A DNA stretch of 64,000 nucleotides. It comes from Pristiophorus japonicus (lineage: Eukaryota). Made by a program: the position numbers and the translations under genes. The notes under the pieces are model-generated. The model ran no database searches and had not been told where the DNA came from. It worked only from the letters and a program-made list of their open reading frames with translations. This document shows, piece after piece, positions 29,765 through 40,479 of the stretch (the stretch's first letter is position 1; each line of letters opens with the position of its first letter). The stretch is taken from the NCBI RefSeq assembly GCF_044704955.1, contig NC_091990.1, positions 177,010,001 to 177,074,000 on the forward strand, written 5' to 3'.

Positions 29765-32700
29765 GTAAAAAAAGGGATGAGGTCCTACGAGACGAATTTA
29801 AGGAGCTAGGAGCTAAGTTAAAAAGTAGGACCTCAAAAGTAGTAATCTCGGGATTGCTACCAGTGCCACGTGCTAGTCAGAGTAGGAATCGTAGGATAGC
29901 GCAGATGAATACGTGGCTTGAGCAGTGGTGCAGGAGGGAGGGATTCAAATTCCTGGGGCACTGGAACAGGTTCTGGGGGAGGTGGGACCAGTACAAACCA
30001 GATGGTCTGCACCTGGGCAGGACCAGAACCAATGTCCTAGGAGGAGTGTTCCTAGTGCTGTTGGGGAGGAGTTAAACTAATATGGCAGGGGGATGGGAAC
30101 CAATGCAGGGAGACAGAGGGAAACAAAAGCAAAAGACCGAAAGGAGATGAGTAAAAGTGGAGGGCAGAGAAACCCAAGGCAAAAAACAAAAAGGGCCACT
30201 GAATATAAAGGGGCTGCAGGAGGGGTCAAAACTAAAAATCATGGTTTAAAAACTAGGATTAAAACACTCTACCTAAATGCACGCAGCATTCGAAATAAAG
30301 TAAATGAGTTGACGGCACAAATCATTACAAATGGATATGATTTGTTGGCCATTAAAGAAACATGGTTGCAGGGTGGCCAAGACTGGGAATTAAACATACA
30401 GGGGTATCTGGCGATTCGGAAAGATAGACAAGAAGGGAAAGGAGGTGGGGTAGCTCTGTTAATAAAGGATGATATCAGGGCAGTTGTGAGAGACGATATT
30501 GGCTCTAATGAACAAAATGTTGAATCATTGTGGGTGAAGATTAGAGATAGTAAGGGGAAAAAGTCACTGGTGGGCGTAGTTTATAGGCCCCCAAATAATA
30601 ACTTCACGGTGGGGTGGGCAATAATCAAGGGAATAATGGAGGCATGTGAAAAAGGAACGGCAGTAGTCATGGGGGATTTTAACCTATATATCGATTGGTC
30701 AACTCCAATCGCACGGGGTAGCCTGGAGGAGGAATTCATAAAATGCATACGGGATTGTTTCTTAGAACAGTATGTAACAGAACCTACAAGGGAGCAAGCT
30801 ATCTTAGATCTGGTCCTGTGTAATGAGACAGGAAAAATAAACGATCTCCTAGTAAAAGATCCTCTCAGAATGAGTGATCACAGTATGGTTGAATTTGTAA
30901 TACAGATTGTGAGTGAGGAAGTAGTGTCTCAAACGAGCGTACTATGCTTAAACAAAGGGGACTACAGTGGGATGAGGGCAGAGTTGGCAAAAGTAGACTG
31001 GAAACACAGACTAAACGGTGGCACAATTGAGGAACAGTGGAGGACTTTTAAGGAGCTTTTTCATAGTGCGCAACAAAAATATATTCCAGTGAAAAAGAAG
31101 GGCGGTAAGGGAAGGGATAACCAGCCGTGGATAACCAAGGAAATAAAGGAGAGTATCAAATCAAAGGCCGATGCGTATAAGGTGGCCAAGGTTAGTGGGA
31201 AACTAGAGGATTGGGAAAATTTTAAACAACAGCAAAGAATGACTAAAAAGCAATAAAGAAAGGAAAGATAGATTACGAAGGTAAACTTGCGCAAAACATA
31301 AAAACAGATAGTAAAAGCTTTTACAGATATATAAAACGGTAAAGAGTGACTTAAGTAAATGTTGGTCCCTTAGAAGATGAGAAGGGGGATTTAATAATGG
31401 GAAATGTGGAAATGGCCGAGACCTTAAACAATTATTTTGTGTCGGTCTTCACAGTGGAAGACACAAAAACCATGCCAAAAATTGCTGGTCACAGGAATGT
31501 GGGAAGGGAGGACCTTGAGACAATCACTATCACTAGTGGGGTAGTGCTGGACAGGCTAATGGGACTCAAGGTAGACAAGTCCCCTGGTCCTGATGAAATG
31601 CATCCCTGGGTATTAAAAGAGATGGCGGAAGTTATAGCAGATGCATTCGTTATAATCTACCAAAATTCTCTGGACTCTGGGGAGGTACCAGCTGATTGGA
31701 AAGCAGCTAATGTAACGCCTCTGTTTAAAAAAATGGGGCAGACAAAAGGCAGGTAACTATAGGCTGGTTAGTTTAACATCTGAAGTGGGGAAAACGAGCA
31801 TGGTGGATAGAGGTGTACCAATGGATGTGGTGTATTTAGATTTCCAAAAGGCATTCGATAAGGTGCCACACAAAAGGTTACTGCAGAAGATAAAGGTACG
31901 CGGTGTCAGAGGAAATGTATTAGCATGGATAGAGAATTGGCTGGCTAACAGAAAGCAGAGAGTCGGGATAAATGGGTCCTTTTTGGGTTGGAAATCGGTG
32001 GTTAGTGGTGTGCTACAGGGATCGGTGCTGGGACCACAATTGTTTACAATATACATAGATGACCTGGAAGAGGGGACAGAGTGTATTGTAACAAAATTTG
32101 CAGATGACACAAAGCTTAGTGGGAAAGCTGGTTGTGTAGAGAGGCTGCAAAGAGATTTGGATAGGTTAAGCGAATGGGCTAAGGTTTGGCAGATGGAATA
32201 CAATGTCGGAAAGTGTGAGGTCATCCACCTTGGGAAAAAAAAACAGTAAAAGGGAATATTATTTGAATGGGGAGAAATTACAACATGTTGAGGTGCAGAG
32301 GGACCTGGGGATCCTTGTGCATGAATCCCAAAAATTAGTTTGCAGGTGCAGCAGGTAATCAGGAAGGCGAATGGAATGTTGGCCTTCATTGCGAGAGGGA
32401 TGGAGCACAAAAGCAGGGAGGTCCTGCTGCAACTGTATAGGGTATTGGTTAGGCCGCACCTGGAGTACTGCGTGCAGTTTTGGTCATTTTACTTAAGGAA
32501 GGATATACTGGCTTTGGAGGGGATACAGAGACGATTCACTAAGCTGATTCCGGAGATGAGGGGGTTACCTTATGATGATAGATTGAGTAGACTGGGTCTT
32601 TACTCGTTGGAGTTCAGAAGGAGGAGGGGTGATCTTATAGAAACATTTAAAATCATGAAAGGGATAGACAGGATAGAGGCAGAGAGGTTGTTTCCACTGG

Positions 32701-33030
32701 TCGGGGAGACTAGAACTAGGGGGCACAGCCTCAAAATACGTGGGAGCCAATTTAAAACCGAGTTGAGAAGCAATTTCTTCTCCCAGAGGGTTGTGAATCT
32801 GTGGAATTCTCTGCCCAAGGAAGCAGTTGAGGCTAGCTCATTGAATGTATTCAAGTCACAGATAGATAGATTTTTAACCAATAAGGGAATTAAGGGTTAC
32901 GGGGAGCGGGCGGGTAAGTGGAGCTGAGTCCACGGCCAGATCAGCCATGATCTTGTTGAATGGCGGAGCAGGCTCGAGGGGCTAGATGGCCTACTCCTGT
33001 TCCTAATTCTTATGTTCTTATGTTCTTATG
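29765..33030 (+). mobile_element. CR1, truncated within ORF1, with an internal deletion in ORF2
   Basis: ORF1 end, endonuclease (30093-31256), RT fragments, a deletion near 31795 and a (TTCTTATG)n tail. Confidence 0.93.
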
Positions 33031-33064
33031 AGCCTGCTCCACCATTCAATAAGATCATGGCTGA

Positions 33065-33712
33065 TGTTGATGGGGGAGAGGGAAGGCTTCTTTTCCCACG
33101 AGCGGGCCCACTGATATAGAGCGTCGACGCTCGCCCCAGCCCACGTAGCAATTCTCGAAGTTAGCAGACAGAGATGGATGGCAAAGTATAACGATCTTTA
33201 TTACGATCGTCCGGGAACATCCCTCATCACAGCCGCCTGCGAGTAGAGATGCTCCCCGAACAGCACAATCGTACAACTTTTATACATTTCAAAAACCCCC
33301 CCGTTCCCTGGTAAGACCTCCCTGGATCTCTAATTGGACTACCTTATCAGTGCTTCTTCTCTAATTGGACTACCTTATCAGTACTACTCCGGATTGACAG
33401 GTCATGAGCACTGACTGACAGGTCATGATCTCGTGACCATCTTAGACCGTTCCCAGAATGGTATCTCTAGGTTGGAATTTGTTATACATTTCCTTTGGTG
33501 CCATGAAGTCTATCTCGGGTCTCTTCGCAAGGACTTATCAATGTCTGTTTAGGTTCCCACATCGTATCCTGTCGGAATATTATTGAATTGATAACTTCTG
33601 GAGCCTTGGTACAAGGCCGAAGAGAGGCCTTATACCTCCTTATGGGTCGGTGCAGGAACCAGCACTTTAACCCTTGTCCCGCTGGTACCCCTAATGCCAA
33701 ATTTCTCTTACA
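33065..33712 (-). repeat. 3' LTR of the env-bearing element
   Basis: On the minus strand it follows the PPT AAAAGGGGGGAAT (33713-33725) and starts TGTAAGAG. It contains duplicated CCAAT-containing 20-mers (33331-33381), TATAAAA at about 33278-33284 and AATAAA at about 33198-33203. Confidence 0.85.
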
Positions 33713-33857
33713 ATTCCCCCCTTTTGGCCCTTGGCTATACGCCAAGCTGGCCATATTTCCCAATAACTATCTCCCTGTAGGCAAGTTCCAGATAGGTCCG
33801 TTCACCTGGGTGGCCATCTCCCAAGCTTCGGGGCCTCCTGAGACCTTTCCCGCAGAG

Positions 33858-35520
33858 TTATATAAGGTAAGTCCTTCCTGTGGGACTGCTTAAATTTTCA
33901 TCCCTTATGGCCTTAATCATAGTGCGTGCCCTGACGTATCGTTTGACCTGTTTAATTCGTGCACATGTTAATCCCATCATGACCATTAGAACCAGGCCCT
34001 GTATTACTACAAGTACATGTGGTATTATTCTTATCCATGGGTGGATCTGAATATCAAGTCCAATGTCCCACAGCTTTGAGTACCAGAGCTGATCAGCCAG
34101 CATCGCGTTAGTGTCTCTCTGTAAGTTGTCTACTTCTTCCATCAGCTGGATATACTGTCGTCTTTGATTCTGGATTCCTTGCACCAAACGTAATTCTTCC
34201 TCATACCTTGTGGTTCCCATACCGCCTCCTTGTACCCCTCTCGGAGGGTATCCGTGACCGTTCCGTGGATGATTTCCGTTGTCTTGGGATGTATGTGGTA
34301 TCCATTTATGTCTATTTTTCCCATGGGCCTGAAACCGAAGTTAGGGTTGGTGATGACACAGGGGGTGACTCCTCCTCTAGTCTTAATCATCGGGTTGGCT
34401 GCTCCTGTGCTCACGCACCAAAGCTCCATTCCCTTGTGGAGCAGCGATTGTTTCGGAATCGTGTTCGAGAGGAGTGATACTCAGCATGCATCCGTTTGTT
34501 TGGTGGAATCTGCAATCATCATTCGTCATTCGTGGCATACCTTGACATAAAAGCACTAAATTATTTTTATAGCAATCAGTTATGTCAATGCCTTTCGTAC
34601 TAGTTTAATTTTAATCACCCATCTGGCAGGCTGACGGTAACGCAACCGAGTTTGATTTCTTTCTTCACCAATATTATCGATCTGGTATAAGAGGTCTCCC
34701 TTTGTTACATCATAGTGTGATATGGACAACATAAATCCGATCATATTCACCCGCCCAGTAATACATCTGAAATTTGGCACCCATGCGTGACTATTCCTTC
34801 GTACCTCGCATTTGTCATTCATTTTTTTATCTGGAGTCCAATTGTTAAGTATGCTGTTCGGGATCCAATCTGGTATGTCGCCATTCTGGAGTTGCTCCAA
34901 GTTATGTTGTACTTCACTTAATCCAGGCCCCATACCTGGAGCGAACTATCTCAGCTTGTAATCGTTTACTTATGTCGTTCCCCATTGAGTGGATCAAATT
35001 TATTGTCTTGGCATGCTTCTGTAATGTATGGGCCACTTGTAACAGTTCCCCTTCCACGCCATCTCCCAACCACGCTTGTAGGGCTTGGTTATCCAAGTCC
35101 CTCCCCAGTAAACCCCTCAAGACTATGCCATTAAGTTGTTAGCCTGGTCGTATATTGCATACAGGTCTATGGAATTCATCGTCGTAATCCCTGCCGCATA
35201 ACCCGTGCCTAGTGTTTCCAGTATTCTCCTTTTTGTTCGACCTTGTCCTGTTCCCTTTCTGAAATTAAATCTCAGGGTAGTGGATTCTGGGCCTTCGAGG
35301 ATCCGTTGTGCCAGGTTCTGGTATAGACTTATAGTTTCATTCCCACAGAAGCTAGGAAGAATGATATCCATTAGATTTAGGTTAAGTAGTCGCTGAAGCA
35401 CCCCAATTATATCCTTTGTTTAGATTCTTTTATTCCTAGCCCCCCTTTGGCTCCAGTCTTTATGGACGGGCTTATGGGGGGACTTGCATGGTTGTGCTGG
35501 GAAGAGTTGTTGTCCCCAGG
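33858..35520 (-). pseudogene. env: Envelope/fusion glycoprotein with F-type architecture, fragmented
   Basis: Furin site RTKR, then a fusion-peptide-like ILETLGTGYAAGITTMNSIDL, a heptad region, a Cys-rich mid-region, HR2, a W-rich stem, TM IIPHVLVVIQGLVLMVMMGLTC and a basic tail. Spread over several frames. Confidence 0.8.
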
Positions 35521-38050
35521 GTGGTTGATGGGGCAGTGGTCCCTTTGGGGCTTGTTTGGTGTCCAAGCCGGAACTTTATTGTCATCTTTCCTCCACACTC
35601 CATCCGTCCCCCTTTTTAGGTTGTATTCCTTCTTGTTTGCGCTGCACATGATCAATACCGGCTTCTCCGTGTTGTTACCGTGTCACGCTTCGGGACATAC
35701 ACCTTATATTCCAGAGACCTCCCTTGGTCTTCATTTTATCCCACTGGCCAGTTTTCCTAAACATCCTGGGGTCCCACTCCACTTTTTGCTCCGTTCTGTT
35801 CCCACCCTTCTGTTTCTTGCGGGGTGGATTTGGCTGCTTGTTTGCAGCTTCGCCCGCCCAGGCATGAGCTTCTAGAGCTGAAATTCCATCCAGTTGGATT
35901 TCTGCGCCCTTCCCCTTTGGTCCTATGAACTTGCTCCTGTCCTCGGAATCTACTGGCGCCCATGGCATCGGCAGCCTGCTGCATTACAACCTTACTTAAT
36001 ACAATATTCATAGCCATGCGTTAAAATAAGTTTTGTCCTTGCTCCAGTCCTTGGCTGCTGGGATGCATTGCGGCAGTTAAATTAAACAAAGCTAGTTCAT
36101 GTAGTTGTGCCTTTCCTGCGTGTGCTATATCTCTCGTAGTCCAACTGTATTATCCAGTGCTTACGTGGGCCTCAAGGTTCCCAGTATCCTGAGTCTCCAG
36201 AGTCGAAGTAGCCGCTGCGGTCCCATCTCGGTGAGTGTTTTATCTGCAAATTTTAAGCAGATAGCCTGGTTGTCACCAGGTGTTAGGTTCTGGTCTACTC
36301 ATCTTTTATCCATGCATGTCGAGGTCACTCTGTGAAATCGGAGGTAAGGGTTAGGTTGGGGTTTGTAGACTACACTTGCCCACCGTGGGGTACATTGGCT
36401 CTATTGCCATAGGTGATGGTGCTATGGCTGCGCACTGCACTATCCGTCTGGCCCCGTTTAAAAAAAAATCTCTTCCAGCTTATTTATCTTAGCTTTTAAC
36501 TCTTTAATTTGTTTTGTTTGAGTATCTTTCTTTTATTTGTATCAGGGGAGTATTATTACATAGGTTCGTTCTGTTTAATTTTAGTCTGACTATCTCACCA
36601 TTTCCTCTATCTGTCAGGTGAGTCTTTTTTATTCTATTAAGAAATCCAAATTAATAATGTCCAGTATAATATAAAACAGCTGTCAATGGAAAGGGTTAAC
36701 TCCTTTACAGGTTTGTGAGAAAGCCTGATGTCATTACGTGACTTCGCGTAATCATCCGAAAAATTCTTTTTTAAGTCTTTGTGCCTTCAAAACTTGCTTA
36801 GAAATTAGGAATCCGTTAAAACAGCAGAAATCATTAGTAAAGCCATCATAATAAAAGTCTTCTCATCAGGAAAGATGACATTTTAGATTAAACTCCAATT
36901 TTTTCTTAACTTCTAATTCAAGTACTTGCCAAAGATTTTTTTAAAAATTGATTTAAAACGAGACCACACATTTTTAATAGCTATTTTGTTTACTGAAATC
37001 CAATTTTCACACAAGCTGTATACATTCCAACATTTCGTTTTTTTTCCCGGTCCTGTTCACTGGGCAAATCTTGTGTTTTATTTCTCTCTCAGCACAAAAT
37101 CTAAACATCCGTGCCAGTTCCATTTTCTATAAGAATTTAAAAATTCAGTAAGATTCTCTAATTCCCAGTTTTTTCTTTCTCTGCTGAGTTTGCATAGCTT
37201 AGATCTTTTCTCCTCGTTATTTTCAAAACCCTCCTGCTTGTTGAGACTGTTCGGGACTTTTCTTGATAAACAACGTCCATTTTGGAAATCTTTCAAACTG
37301 CAGTGGAACTTTCTCGTAATTTAAAATCATTATTAATGGAGAATGTCTTTTACCTCTTCAAATTCTTTTTTTTCTCCAATTAAACCAATATCTTTTTCAC
37401 AGCCGATATCAACTAGTATTTAGTAAGTTATGTCTTTTTCCATCGCAAACACCCCTTTTTTTTCCAGCACCTAATTAGTGCGTTACGTCTTTTTTTTCCA
37501 GATCACCTTTCTTCAAATTAGGTTTTATATTTTACACGGAGGGCTCGTGACTCCGTAAGTTTGTTAATTTAAAATCATCAGACAATCGAAGACACTTTTT
37601 CTTTCAAATTCGTTCAATTTGTTTACTTTCAAAGTGGCGTCTTTATCTTTTTCTTTTCTCCATAACTAGAACGGAGTCTAGCACGTAGGCTTTGAGGGCT
37701 GCTTTTCGTTATCTCAAAAGGTTCCAGTTTCAAGGTCGTTACAATGTTTTTTTCTAAACTGCTAAAGCTTGCTGTTTTAATATTTTTCAAAAGTCCCTTT
37801 TACACCTTCGTAGATAGTTTACCACTCGCCCAGGAGTTTGACCTGATCCCTGAAGGTATTTCTAAATTGTTTCTAAACCTTTTAGTTTTATATCCTCCTT
37901 TTTTCTTCAAGAGATCAGATTTAATTTAATAATTTTTTTTGAATCCATCTCAGTATTTTGCTGTGCCTTCTCTTAATATCTCAAATTTTGTAATGTCAAT
38001 CTTTATCCGAATAAATGCACATCTGCGTTTCTAACTTAAAATGTCTTAAA
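35520..38050 (-). pseudogene. Decayed gag-like / K-E-rich coiled-coil region
   Basis: Lies between the PBS and env. Short A-rich K/E-rich ORF remnants (37078-37296, 35675-35968) and a Pro-rich patch; no diagnostic motif recognised. Confidence 0.35.
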
Positions 38051-38822
38051 ACTTCCCACATACAGGACAACACTACAAAGGGTTAAAAAAACTTTCACTC
38101 TGTTTGGAAAAGTGGGTGGAGCTGCACTATCTTTCCAAACAGGCTTTCAGAAACATGAACAATTCATTCCGCAGTCAGAAAATCACACAAGGACTCTCAC
38201 TCAACGACAGACATTCACAAAAGTCTCTCTTCATTCAACCAAGCCTATTAATTGTTTGGCCGGCTCTATTTTTAAGATAGTCACTATCAGCTTTTTTATG
38301 GTATTACGTAGTTACGCAAGTTACAATTAATGATTGGTTTTATTCGCCTTTTTAATAGCCGTGTTACCCATCTTCTTTGGGGTTATGAGGGTCTTGGGTA
38401 CTCCCTTAAATTCGTGTTAGGTATGCAGGACGCTATCTATATGTCTTCCCTTGGCGCTGTACACTTGTACTGCCACGCTTTGGGTCAATATATCCCGTCA
38501 CTGCCGGGACGTTGTCTCTATGTCCTCACTCTCTCGTCCCTGCACCGTGCGCTCGTACCACTTCAGGTCAATAGACCTTCCTCTATATCTTCCCTTGCGC
38601 GTATCCTCGCACTGCCGTGCTACCTCCACGCGCGCGTTTTCGGATGCACCTTTTGTCCCCCTTTCACCCCTAGATCGTCCTAGTCCTCTGTCTCCGTCCC
38701 TCCGGGACTCACTACAGATGGCTCTTTTGTACGGATGTCATTCCCTTGCGGTTTACAATGCCACAGCTCTAACTTGAAGGTGGTAAATTAAAACATACTC
38801 ACCCCAACAGCTGGGTCATTAT

Positions 38823-38840
38823 ACCCTGCTCGCAGCGCCA
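38823..38840 (-). promoter_or_regulatory. Primer-binding site complementary to tRNA-Ser
   Basis: The minus strand reads TGGCGCTGCGAGCAGGGT two nt after the LTR end. This matches the recalled vertebrate tRNA-Ser(UGA/CGA) 3' end with about one mismatch. Confidence 0.75.
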
Positions 38841-40479
38841 AATGTAAGGGAAAATGGGAAGGCTTCTCCTCCCATGAGCGGGCCCCCTTACAGCTGATCT
38901 GATCATGGACTTAGCTCCACTTCCCTGCCCGCTCCCCAAAACCCCTTATTCCCTTATAATTTAAGAAACTGTCTATTTCTGTCTTAAATTTATTCAATGT
39001 CCCAGTTTCCACAGCTCGCTGAGGCAGTGAATTCCACAGATTTACAACCCTCTGAGAGAAAAAATTTCTCCTCATCTCCATTTTAAATGAGTGGTCCCTT
39101 ATTCTAAGATCATGCCCTCTCGTTCTAGACTCTGCTATCAGTGGAAACATCCTCTCTGCATCCACCTTGTCAAGCCCCCTCATAATCTTATACGTTTCAA
39201 TAAGATCATCTCTCATTCTTCTGAATTCCTACTTAACCTTTCCTCATAAGTCAACCCCCTCATCCCCGGAATCAACCTAGTGAATCTTCTTTGAAATGCC
39301 TCCAAAGCAAGTATATCCTTTCGTAAATATGGAAACCAAAACTGCATGCAGTATTCCAGGTGTGGCCTCACCAATACCTTACATAGACTTCCCTGCTTTT
39401 ATACTCCACCCGCTTTGCAATAATGGCCAAGGTACCATTGGCCTTCTTGATCACTTGCTGTACTTGATACTATTCTTTTGCGTTTCATGCACAAGTACCC
39501 CCAGGTCCCGCTGTACTGTGGCACTTTGCAATCTTTCTCCATTTGAATAATAACTTGCTCTTTGATTTTTTTTCTGCCAAAGTGCATGACCTCACACTTT
39601 CCAACATTATATCCATCTGCCAAATGTTTGCCTACTCACTTAGCCTGTCTATGTCCTTTTGCAGATTTTTTGTGCCTGCCTCACACATTCCTATTCCTCC
39701 CATCTTTGTATCGTCAGCAAACTTGGCTATATTACACTCAGTCCCTTCTTCCAAGTTGTTAATATAGATTGTAAATAGTTGGGGTTCCAGCACTGATCCC
39801 TGCGGCACCCCACTAGTTACTGGTTGCCAACCAGAGAATGAACCGTTTATCCTGACTCTCTGTTTTCTGTTAGTTAACCAATCCTCTATCCATTACCCCC
39901 AAACCCGTAAACTTTTATCTTGTGCAGTAACCTTTTATGTGGCACCTTGCCAAATGCCTTCTGGAAGTCCAAATACACCACATCCACTAGTTCCCCTTTA
40001 TCCACCCTGCTCGTTACATCCTCGAAGAACTCCAGCAAATTTGTCAAACATGACTTCCCCTTCATAAATCCATGCTGACTCTGCCTGACCGAAATTGATA
40101 GCCTGGCTTCTCGCTGAGGGTAACTCTATCAGTGAAACTGCTTTTCGATGCGTGGGTGAGAGTGAGTTAGTGAGTTTCCCCATATTTGATGACATAATGT
40201 GTTATTGTGGCATTGACTCATCAAATATGTAAATTTGGTGAAGCCTGCCCTCCATAATGCTGGCACAGATGTACCTGTGGTCTGTAAGCCAACACCAATT
40301 TGGCTGTTCTTAGAAAATCAGGCTCTGTGTCATGGGGGTGGGGTGGGTTAGGGAGGCGATGGTGGAAGCGATCATGCATGGGAAGCCCTGCAGTAAGTGC
40401 AATGTGTCTGTCAGTTGATTTATAACTGAGTTTCCTCATTATCATTTTACTTCCGGATTTGCCATACAATTAGTGTCAG

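Follow-up and report, generated by a model that had tools for sequence, protein, structure and literature searches.

The window analysed here, 64,000 nt of Pristiophorus japonicus contig NC_091990.1, contains an LTR insertion on its minus strand (33065-38892) that an initial annotation described as a complete provirus with an F-type, lokiretrovirus-like envelope and no pol gene. The locus raises the question of whether such an element is one deleted provirus or a member of a family moved by a helper, and of what kind of virus its envelope came from. In our reading it is very probably a damaged copy of a pol-less family that spread as a non-coding passenger RNA, with proteins supplied by a full-length gag-pol-env family that shares its genome.

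Table 1. Parts of the insertion, in element order; positions count from the first nucleotide of the window.
Feature	Position	Strand	Remark
TSD, 5′ side, GCTGA (plus strand)	38893..38897		
5′ LTR stub, 50 nt	38843..38892	-	First ~6-9 nt of LTR plus last ~45 nt of U5
PBS	38823..38840	-	Complementary to tRNA-Ser(UGA) 3′ end
Leader and first ~12 gag codons	38336..38822	-	85-88% identity to helper; gag ATG at 38371
Leader ATG and splice donor	38797..38819	-	Donor GGTGAGT at 38797-38803
AT-rich insert (~66% A+T)	36623..38335	-	No recognised gene; common to pol-less family, missing from helper
Short gag scrap, then ~580 nt without assignment	35866..36622	-	Helper gag residues ~72-132
Four scraps (33-52 nt) of RNase H end/integrase start	35538..35865	-	Family-diagnostic junction
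Env relic	33858..35537	-	Helper env codons ~167-731; signal peptide gone
RTKR (furin site)	35228-35239	-	Within env relic
Membrane anchor	about 33963-34028	-	Within env relic
PPT	33714..33725	-	
3′ LTR, 648 nt	33065..33712	-	TG...CA, AATAAA
TSD, 3′ side, GCTGA (plus strand)	33060..33064		

The window sequence bore out the signals first annotated, namely a 5-base TSD, PBS, splice donor, RTKR site, PPT and 3′ LTR (Table 1). The TSD duplicates a CR1 3′-end site, the unoccupied form of which occurs three times in the window. The tRNA end complementary to the PBS is found at 72 places in the genome; ARAGORN called tRNA-Ser(UGA) at one of three of these loci (His at one, no call at one) and at 3/3 loci carrying a one-base variant. 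The integrant is not complete as described, since ~600 nt of the 5′ LTR are gone. The junction within the resulting stub has a single occurrence genome-wide and is therefore private to this copy, which rules out the stub as a subfamily trait. As annotated, the element yielded no sequence for RT, protease or the catalytic part of integrase. Tiny scraps of RNase H and integrase do survive. The env relic differs from a helper frame by eight frameshifts and one stop. The window copy itself is junk, a damaged member of a multi-copy family.

The K/E-rich sequence taken for decayed gag was reassigned: against the helper only two short gag scraps remain, and ~1.7 kb of AT-rich sequence lies within the 5′ end of gag. 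A Pfam search of all six frames of this insert, with stops written as X, gave no match, and an SMC-like or capsid gene there was rejected on that basis. We also rejected G-to-A or otherwise hypermutated helper gag/pol as its source; the alignment score of 165 was equalled by 1 of 40 shuffles, and the best alignments landed at differing places from helper to helper.

The full-length family encodes gag with zinc knuckles, protease, RT, tether, RNase H, integrase and env, is ~8.5 kb long and uses a tRNA-Ser primer. A 20-mer from its RT occurs at 70 places, marking at least 70 loci. Pol-containing relatives with the same PBS and LTR type, which the initial annotation had proposed to look for, thus exist. 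PBS, leader ATG and donor are of identical type in the two families, and the ages overlap (helper LTR-pair divergence 0.011-0.047 in 10 pairs; TSDs of 4 and 5 bases here too). Identity of the window LTR to the sampled helper LTRs is only 81-87%, so the exact helper sublineage of the core family is not among them. Two long LTR pairs (10.9 kb and 8.1 kb) considered as helpers were rejected as pol-less copies with CR1 insertions. The helper env frame, of ~730 codons, has no ATG of its own. The phase of the leader ATG and donor fits an acceptor predicted at the env start, suggesting a spliced signal peptide. The predicted Env would then consist of this peptide, a ~270-residue N-subunit, furin site, fusion peptide, long helix, beta-rich domains, second helix and membrane anchor; the part after the furin site comprises 462 residues and ends in a short cytoplasmic tail. 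In this frame the furin site lies ~269 codons in, not near the N terminus as annotated, and the first ~166 codons are lost in the window family. The short-F2 layout of the window env is therefore partly a deletion artefact.

We examined the placement of the helper backbone by RT phylogeny and motifs. A clade uniting helper RT with lokiretroviruses was rejected (AU p=0.0014); two metagenome records (L163, L164) stood for loki, identified as such by a motif given in the accessible part of the PMC7947760 supplement and by a PF00523-hitting env, and tree groups were named after a first tree had been seen. The RT and RNase H motifs of the helper match the snakehead rows, not the loki rows, of the same part of that supplement. 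Lokiretroviruses are further marked by an RNase H that groups with that of foamy viruses and by an integrase near CGIN1. By eye, the RNase H motifs of the helper fit orthoretroviral/snakehead rows, and the best PDB match was MLV RT-RNase H (355 bits). Identity to snakehead retrovirus RT (L134) is 42%, the best among named references. The snakehead virus was not sister to the helper in the free tree, and a helper-snakehead constraint was not rejected (p=0.21), with a reference set excluding ERV-L/ERV-S and CmiERV. A search for longer proteins with RT returned a gamma-like match only (n=1), and the loki motif occurred in none of the viral contigs. According to the accessible portions of PMC4422223, PMC4977317 and PMC12193657, snakehead retrovirus and SnRV-like ERVs, including elephant-shark CmiERV lineage I, have these RT and RNase H motifs in common with the helper. 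The combination of an RT in the foamy clade, a PF03408 Env and a Gag without zinc knuckles, used here for Spumaretrovirinae, was not found; unlike foamy viruses, the helper has no PF03408 match, an Env of ~730 rather than ~990 residues, no long foamy leader peptide, zinc knuckles in Gag and Pol directly after Gag. By these trees and motifs, helper RT is not loki and falls in the snakehead/foamy-side basal grade. We place the helper among basal retroviruses, apart from both the loki and the gamma/epsilon clades, with motifs like those of snakehead retrovirus. This supports the earlier suggestion of a poorly described fish retrovirus lineage.

The F-type assignment of the envelope held. Using a weak structure model of a helper copy, not the window copy (pLDDT 62, pTM 0.30, TM-scores 0.2-0.4), Foldseek listed 33 matches, all of them pneumovirus or paramyxovirus F or foamy Env (best E 9e-7), and the best VIA-align row was foamy Env (Z 7.6, rmsd 12.2, 271 aligned). 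Language-model neighbours of env fell in the PF00523, PF12259 and PF07253 clusters. The helper Env is thus predicted to have the paramyxovirus/pneumovirus F and foamy Env type of fold, the likeness (PMC11468914, accessible part) being in the post-furin subunit. Direct sequence searches were negative, which counts against the assignment: Pfam gave no F-family match above cut-off for window env fragments, long helper env frames and 31 env relatives (one relative, P0073, had a weak Baculo_F match, E 0.0011), PDB sequence searches with env gave nothing significant, and an env fragment found no match when proteins were searched by word index. Profile comparison by hhalign, on the other hand, matched shark env to loki-type env (96.6%, E 6.5e-10) and more weakly to snakehead retrovirus env (58.7%, E 9.5e-5). 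The loki match persisted when a single sequence was used (E 0.002-0.009) or when frog rows were left out of the profile (E 4e-6). On this evidence shark env is homologous to both. It has the F similarity (PF00523 type), RxKR site, fusion peptide, coiled coil and TM segment expected of lokiretrovirus env, without a direct Pfam match. Like snakehead retrovirus, the helper has an env frame lacking its own ATG, no CX6CC and a homologous post-furin subunit; it differs in its ~8.5-kb length, tRNA-Ser primer, ~730 versus 1134 env codons and short cytoplasmic tail. CX6CC, the motif named earlier as speaking against an F-type envelope, is absent from the helper env frame and was found in 11 env frames of comparison records. 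Gamma-type Env combines this motif with an ISD in a short TM subunit, whereas the post-furin part of the helper Env has 462 residues.

These data bear on the possibility that the parent was a lokiretrovirus, the first in a cartilaginous fish, or a recent chimera with a loki-derived env. Of 139 frames compared, loki-type envs indeed scored highest as retroviral relatives of shark env, and as described in the accessible part of PMC7947760, lokiretroviruses likewise have an F-type env with an RxKR site, a tether plus RNase H, and non-autonomous derivatives. Against this stand the rejected RT clade, the differing RNase H motifs and the Gag zinc knuckles, and shark env forms its own deep branch at ~20% identity to loki env, in a tree whose deep branches lack resolution. 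The same part of that paper reports lokiretroviruses in 0/6 chondrichthyan genomes. We consider a loki parent unlikely; the lokiretrovirus-like label does not extend beyond env.

Bhikhari, ENS-1 and IAP 1-delta-1 are precedents for another reading, in which a pol-less family kept a working Gag and/or Env and thereby contributed to its amplification. Most copies retain ~1.7 kb of env, the AT-rich insert sits within the 5′ end of gag, and one locus (L085) has long gag and env frames although its pol is deleted. NG86 dN/dS across all pol-less env pairs is 0.45, not 1, a value attributed to mosaic copies and transition bias. Nearly all copies, however, have lost the signal peptide and the env splice acceptor (in 47/48 the env sequence begins at helper codon 163-169), carry a frameshift near codon 185 (46/48) and have a stop at codon 210 (47/49, versus 0/27 helper copies). 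Many lack further pieces of env, and the 5′ half of 45 other pol-less copies contains no frame of at least 150 codons. In a core set of 22 copies, picked from the tree after the fact, the third/first-second position divergence of env was 0.97, compared with 1.9-2.5 among and between helper lineages. By this codon pattern the pol-less env drifts neutrally, and env and gag were dead or absent before the family amplified. A coding family is accordingly quite improbable, and for env largely refuted. Of the gag-env family with a helper proposed earlier, the pol-less, multi-copy nature and the pol-bearing relative stand, and the coding capacity does not. Zebrafish Bhikhari, by the accessible text of 10.1101/2024.03.25.586437, retains a working gag, whereas nothing is retained here.

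The junction 20-mer occurs 124 times in the genome, marking at least 124 loci, and the junction region was matched along its whole length at 40/40 scored loci; not one of the 45 copies examined contains RT within the element. One further stretch (L078), which lay to the wrong side of its element, was left out. Of 27 two-LTR copies, 19 are flanked by exact TSDs of 4 or 5 bases at differing sites, as anticipated by the initial annotation for a family. Duplication or recombination at the DNA level, instead of retrotransposition in trans, might account for a tandem LTR-internal-LTR-internal array (L094), for the 3/27 two-LTR copies without a TSD and for the discordant LTR ends of the window copy. 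It is highly improbable as the main source of copies, whose flanks and TSDs differ across many chromosomes and whose own 5′ and 3′ LTRs lie within 1.4-6.6% of each other (divergence 0.014-0.066), while LTR subtypes are far more divergent. The copies are thus many independent insertions with one common defective structure. A one-off deletion in a single provirus, to which two apparently private features of the window copy, its truncated 5′ LTR and a leader deletion of ~310 nt, might point, is refuted by the junction at those 124 or more loci.

Indirect support for spread in trans comes from mosaic copies. In 10/49 pol-less copies, windows of 3′ env approached the helper more closely by 5 points or more; mosaics are overrepresented in this sample (3/39 clear mosaics among copies picked by junction alone). 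Two pol-less copies (L037 and L127) have helper-type LTRs, matching LTR pairs and exact TSDs. By analogy with mouse VL30/ETn, mosaics with helper 3′ env and LTRs point to co-packaging. We infer from sequence that pol-less RNA would be packaged, reverse-transcribed and integrated by helper proteins, that the common leader may act as the packaging signal (38336..38822 is likely the packaging region), and that template switching with co-packaged helper RNA would generate the mosaics.

Helper-dependent ERVs are known as a kind, and foamy viruses and lokiretroviruses are already known to have F-like envelopes. The shark helper is predicted to combine this fold with a backbone that belongs to neither group, and it has relatives in frogs and in snakehead retrovirus. 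We lean towards a third F-type retroviral branch, comprising a basal shark/amphibian lineage and the exogenous snakehead retrovirus (filed under Orthoretrovirinae). If F-type Env sits on three deep branches, the ancestral envelope of retroviruses would have been of this type, with the gamma/beta-type TM hairpin as its later replacement, and this genome would also record a non-coding parasite swapping 3′ ends with such a virus over millions of years. The envelope type of the first retrovirus becomes testable by sequence and structure. We found no statement of these points in the literature searched; Repbase/Dfam, subscription papers and bioRxiv supplements may already describe this family or the fold of snakehead Env.

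As summarised in the accessible part of PMC6466679, VL30 with MLV, ETn with MusD and a non-coding ERV-beta4 derivative are trans-mobilised LTR elements that outnumber their helpers and keep the LTRs and the 5′ and 3′ internal ends of a coding relative around a middle without retroviral homology. The pol-less family is a clear fish parasite of this type, with dated copies and with recombinants consistent with co-packaging. Unlike mouse VL30/ETn, it occupies a cartilaginous-fish genome, has a basal retrovirus as its helper, has a 3′ part made up of a long, dead relic of an F-type env and visibly swaps 3′ env and LTRs with that helper.

The element studied in the window is an LTR element sitting in the 3′-terminal part of a CR1-type LINE and flanked on both sides by a 5-base target site duplication (TSD), the empty target motif of which occurs three times in the window. 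The polypurine tract (PPT), 3′ LTR (648 nt), primer binding site (PBS), donor, and RTKR motif lie where the initial annotation placed them, but its description of a complete integrant does not hold, since the 5′ LTR is a mere 50-nt stub. The junction of this stub occurs once in the genome, and the U5 end of the stub belongs to a different LTR subtype from the 3′ LTR; these discordant ends are possibly a heterozygous-virion product or the result of later recombination. Short tandem duplications in U3 differ among LTR subtypes. The tRNA 3′ end that would pair with the PBS is present at 72 genomic places, and ARAGORN named tRNA-Ser(UGA) at 4 of 6 loci examined (two pattern variants of the PBS-matching tRNA end). 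Two CR1 LINEs lie tail to tail around the element, forming long inverted repeats (75 to 80%).

Coordinates of the element, its surroundings, and two further loci
Feature	Position	Strand	Remark
LTR element	window 33065-38892	minus	
5′ LTR stub	window 38843-38892		50 nt
3′ LTR segment compared with stub	window 33065-33112		
U3 tandem duplication	window 33327-33388		31 nt
U3 tandem duplication	window about 33395-33430		about 18 nt
CR1 LINE	window 30081-32975	plus	
CR1 LINE	window 38893-40125	minus	
Second pol-deleted derivative (locus L085)	G000:C11:78890500-78900400		
Second F-type env (locus L084)	L084:7713-8888	minus	adjoins helper copy

Compared with a full-length gag-pol-env family of the same genome (the helper), the element comprises, in order, the leader and gag start, ~1.7 kb of AT-rich DNA that is foreign relative to the helper, a gag scrap, a further stretch, four pol scraps of 33 to 52 nt, and env from helper codon ~167 onward. 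At least 40 relatives of the window LTR (84 to 96%) are present in the genome. Seven copies with two LTRs run colinear with the window element, all without pol; the two long ones contain CR1 insertions. A 500-nt sequence spanning the junction diagnostic of the family, at the pol scraps, matched end to end at 40 of 40 scored loci. We fetched the 39 other scored junction loci and six earlier copies. None of these 45 copies contained RT inside the element, four gave weak matches to RNase H/integrase scraps, and six had pol matches only in their flanks, unrelated to the element. A junction 20-mer, found in 35 of the 45 copies, has 124 occurrences in the genome, which is a lower bound. These counts bear out a multicopy family with a common pol-less junction. 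Among 27 two-LTR copies, 9 had exact 5-base TSDs, 10 had exact 4-base TSDs, 5 had near matches, and 3 had none; their LTR divergence (median, 0.037; range, 0.014 to 0.066) would correspond to ~85 million years at the assumed shark rate (2.2e-10) versus ~8 million years at the mammalian rate, both quoted in PMC4422223, so that the age may lie anywhere between these values. At one locus (L094), the family has a tandem LTR-internal-LTR-internal arrangement.

The genes of the pol-less family were dead before it spread. Env starts at helper codons 163 to 169 in 47 of 48 copies, and 46 of 48 have in common a frameshift near env codon 185; other frameshifts, near codons 306, 374, 480, 541, and 614, each occur in 20 to 28 copies, while no frameshift was common to four helper-type copies (n = 27). 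A stop at env codon 210 is present in 47 of 49 pol-less copies versus 0 of 27 helper copies. With CpG sites masked, the ratio of third- to first/second-position env divergence was 0.97 in 22 core copies (a subset picked from the tree) and 1.34 over all pol-less copies, against a value of 1.27 for the youngest clade of helpers and 1.9 to 2.5 among and between helper lineages. The NG86 value over all pol-less env pairs (0.45) counts against this reading; we ascribe it to mosaics and transition bias. The 5′ half contained no frame of ≥150 codons in 45 copies, except leader repeats and LINE insertions, and its six frames had no Pfam match. Given the late env start, the common lesions, and this 5′ half, the gag-env coding family proposed initially is untenable; the feature is real, with the window copy one unremarkable, decayed representative of a noncoding parasite family.

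A genome search with a natural env fragment gave at least 150 matches, many within long open frames, and DNA upstream of 19 matches was mostly of LTR-leader-gag-pol-env layout (about 8.5 kb), encoding zinc knuckles, protease, RT, tether, RNase H, and integrase. A helper RT 20-mer, carried by 14 of the 18 loci fetched, occurs 70 times in the genome. PBS, leader ATG, and donor are the same in the helper as in the window family, and the helper is a pol-bearing relative of the sort that had been sought. Its env frame lacks an ATG and has an acceptor-like site near its start in a phase matching the leader ATG/donor; judging from the sequence, leader-to-env splicing would give Env its signal peptide. 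LTR pairs diverged by 0.011 to 0.047 in 10 copies, ages skewed young because the copies were picked for intact env. L085 is a second type of pol-deleted derivative with a different junction and a true gag-env layout (529-codon gag frame, integrase tail, and 540-codon env frame). The diverged second env at L084, ~50% identical to that of the helper, belongs to another related retrovirus family in the genome.

The helper env frame has about 270 residues upstream of the furin site, 462 downstream, and one membrane anchor; it lacks CX6CC, and Pfam and PDB sequence searches gave no match. The best-matching database protein (93%) carries a sawshark annotation, pointing to a cartilaginous fish as host, and relatives at 20 to 30% come from other sharks and frogs (10 of 34 matches looked up). 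For one natural frame, the post-furin part was modeled with AlphaFold2 (pLDDT, 62; pTM, 0.30); the model has a long helix, a beta-rich middle, a second helix, and the anchor. Foldseek returned 45 matches at E values up to 0.001; the 33 listed had low TM-scores, and all of them were foamy Env or the F protein of metapneumovirus, respiratory syncytial virus, measles virus, or PIV5. VIA-align ranked foamy Env first among 48,161 chains (a modest Z of 7.6). A language-model search, uncalibrated for protein parts, led to PF00523, PF12259, and PF07253 clusters, as did, with a low recognition score, the env of L134, the record taken as snakehead retrovirus (SnRV). When an env profile was scanned against 139 frames from gamma-type, foamy, lokiretrovirus (loki)-type, and L134 records, two loki-type envs ranked highest (E values of 5e-17 and 7e-16), followed by L134 and foamy envs; without frog rows, loki-type envs scored 4e-6. 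Because of these structure, language-model, and profile comparisons, the F-type assignment stands. A horn-shark fbxo15 isoform (P0073) is annotated with a C terminus composed of the membrane-proximal part of this env family, a possible exonization or annotation artifact. Env-like frames of 610 to 739 residues with no database name, from a bamboo shark and two frogs (P0059, P0072, and P0082), may reflect recent activity or capture by the host; one frog has 32 cluster members of a long env-like frame.

L134 agrees with the SnRV length of 10,688 nt (PMC12193657) and matches the snakehead RT row in the PMC7947760 supplement. By eye, its RT and RNase H motifs are the same as those of the helper, whereas those of loki rows differ. 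In an RT tree of 33 of 80 rows, with which a quick tree of all 80 was concordant, the helper joined proteins of sharks and fish in a basal grade that also contains L134 and the foamy viruses; its position was outside the gamma/epsilon clade and distant from loki. Constraining the helper with loki was rejected (P = 0.0014), while constraining its grade with L134 was not (P = 0.21). Therefore, the helper resembles loki or foamy viruses in entry and belongs to neither; it is likely SnRV-like. Published work already describes SnRV-like ERVs from a chimaera, loki and foamy viruses with F-like env, and noncoding helper-dependent mouse ERVs (PMC4422223, PMC4977317, PMC12193657, PMC7947760, PMC11468914, and PMC6466679). 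In the literature searched, including parts of 10.1101/2024.03.25.586437, 10.1101/2023.10.26.564294, PMC13709493, PMC9967133, 10.1101/2021.11.23.469661, and PMC12583693, we found no F-type env ascribed to snakehead-like or shark ERVs. The helper, whose F-type envelope is carried by a backbone neither loki nor foamy, is the part of most value.

Mobilization in trans by helper proteins is our best reading of the pol-less family. Helper Gag would package an element RNA that retains LTRs, PBS, leader, and PPT; with tRNA-Ser as primer, the helper's RT would copy this RNA and its integrase would insert the product. TSDs of 4 and of 5 bases occur in both families. Ten of 49 pol-less copies hold the family 5′ junction followed by helper-like sequence in 3′ env, although clear mosaics made up only 3 of 39 unbiased, junction-picked copies. 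Three of four mosaics checked closely (L037, L127, and L063) group with helper LTRs in a FastTree LTR tree; in L037 and L127 the two LTRs match each other and the TSDs are exact, in keeping with a template switch that preceded integration. At three loci (L015, L035, and L082), in both pol-less and helper elements, a leader unit of ~90 to 100 nt is multiplied in tandem.
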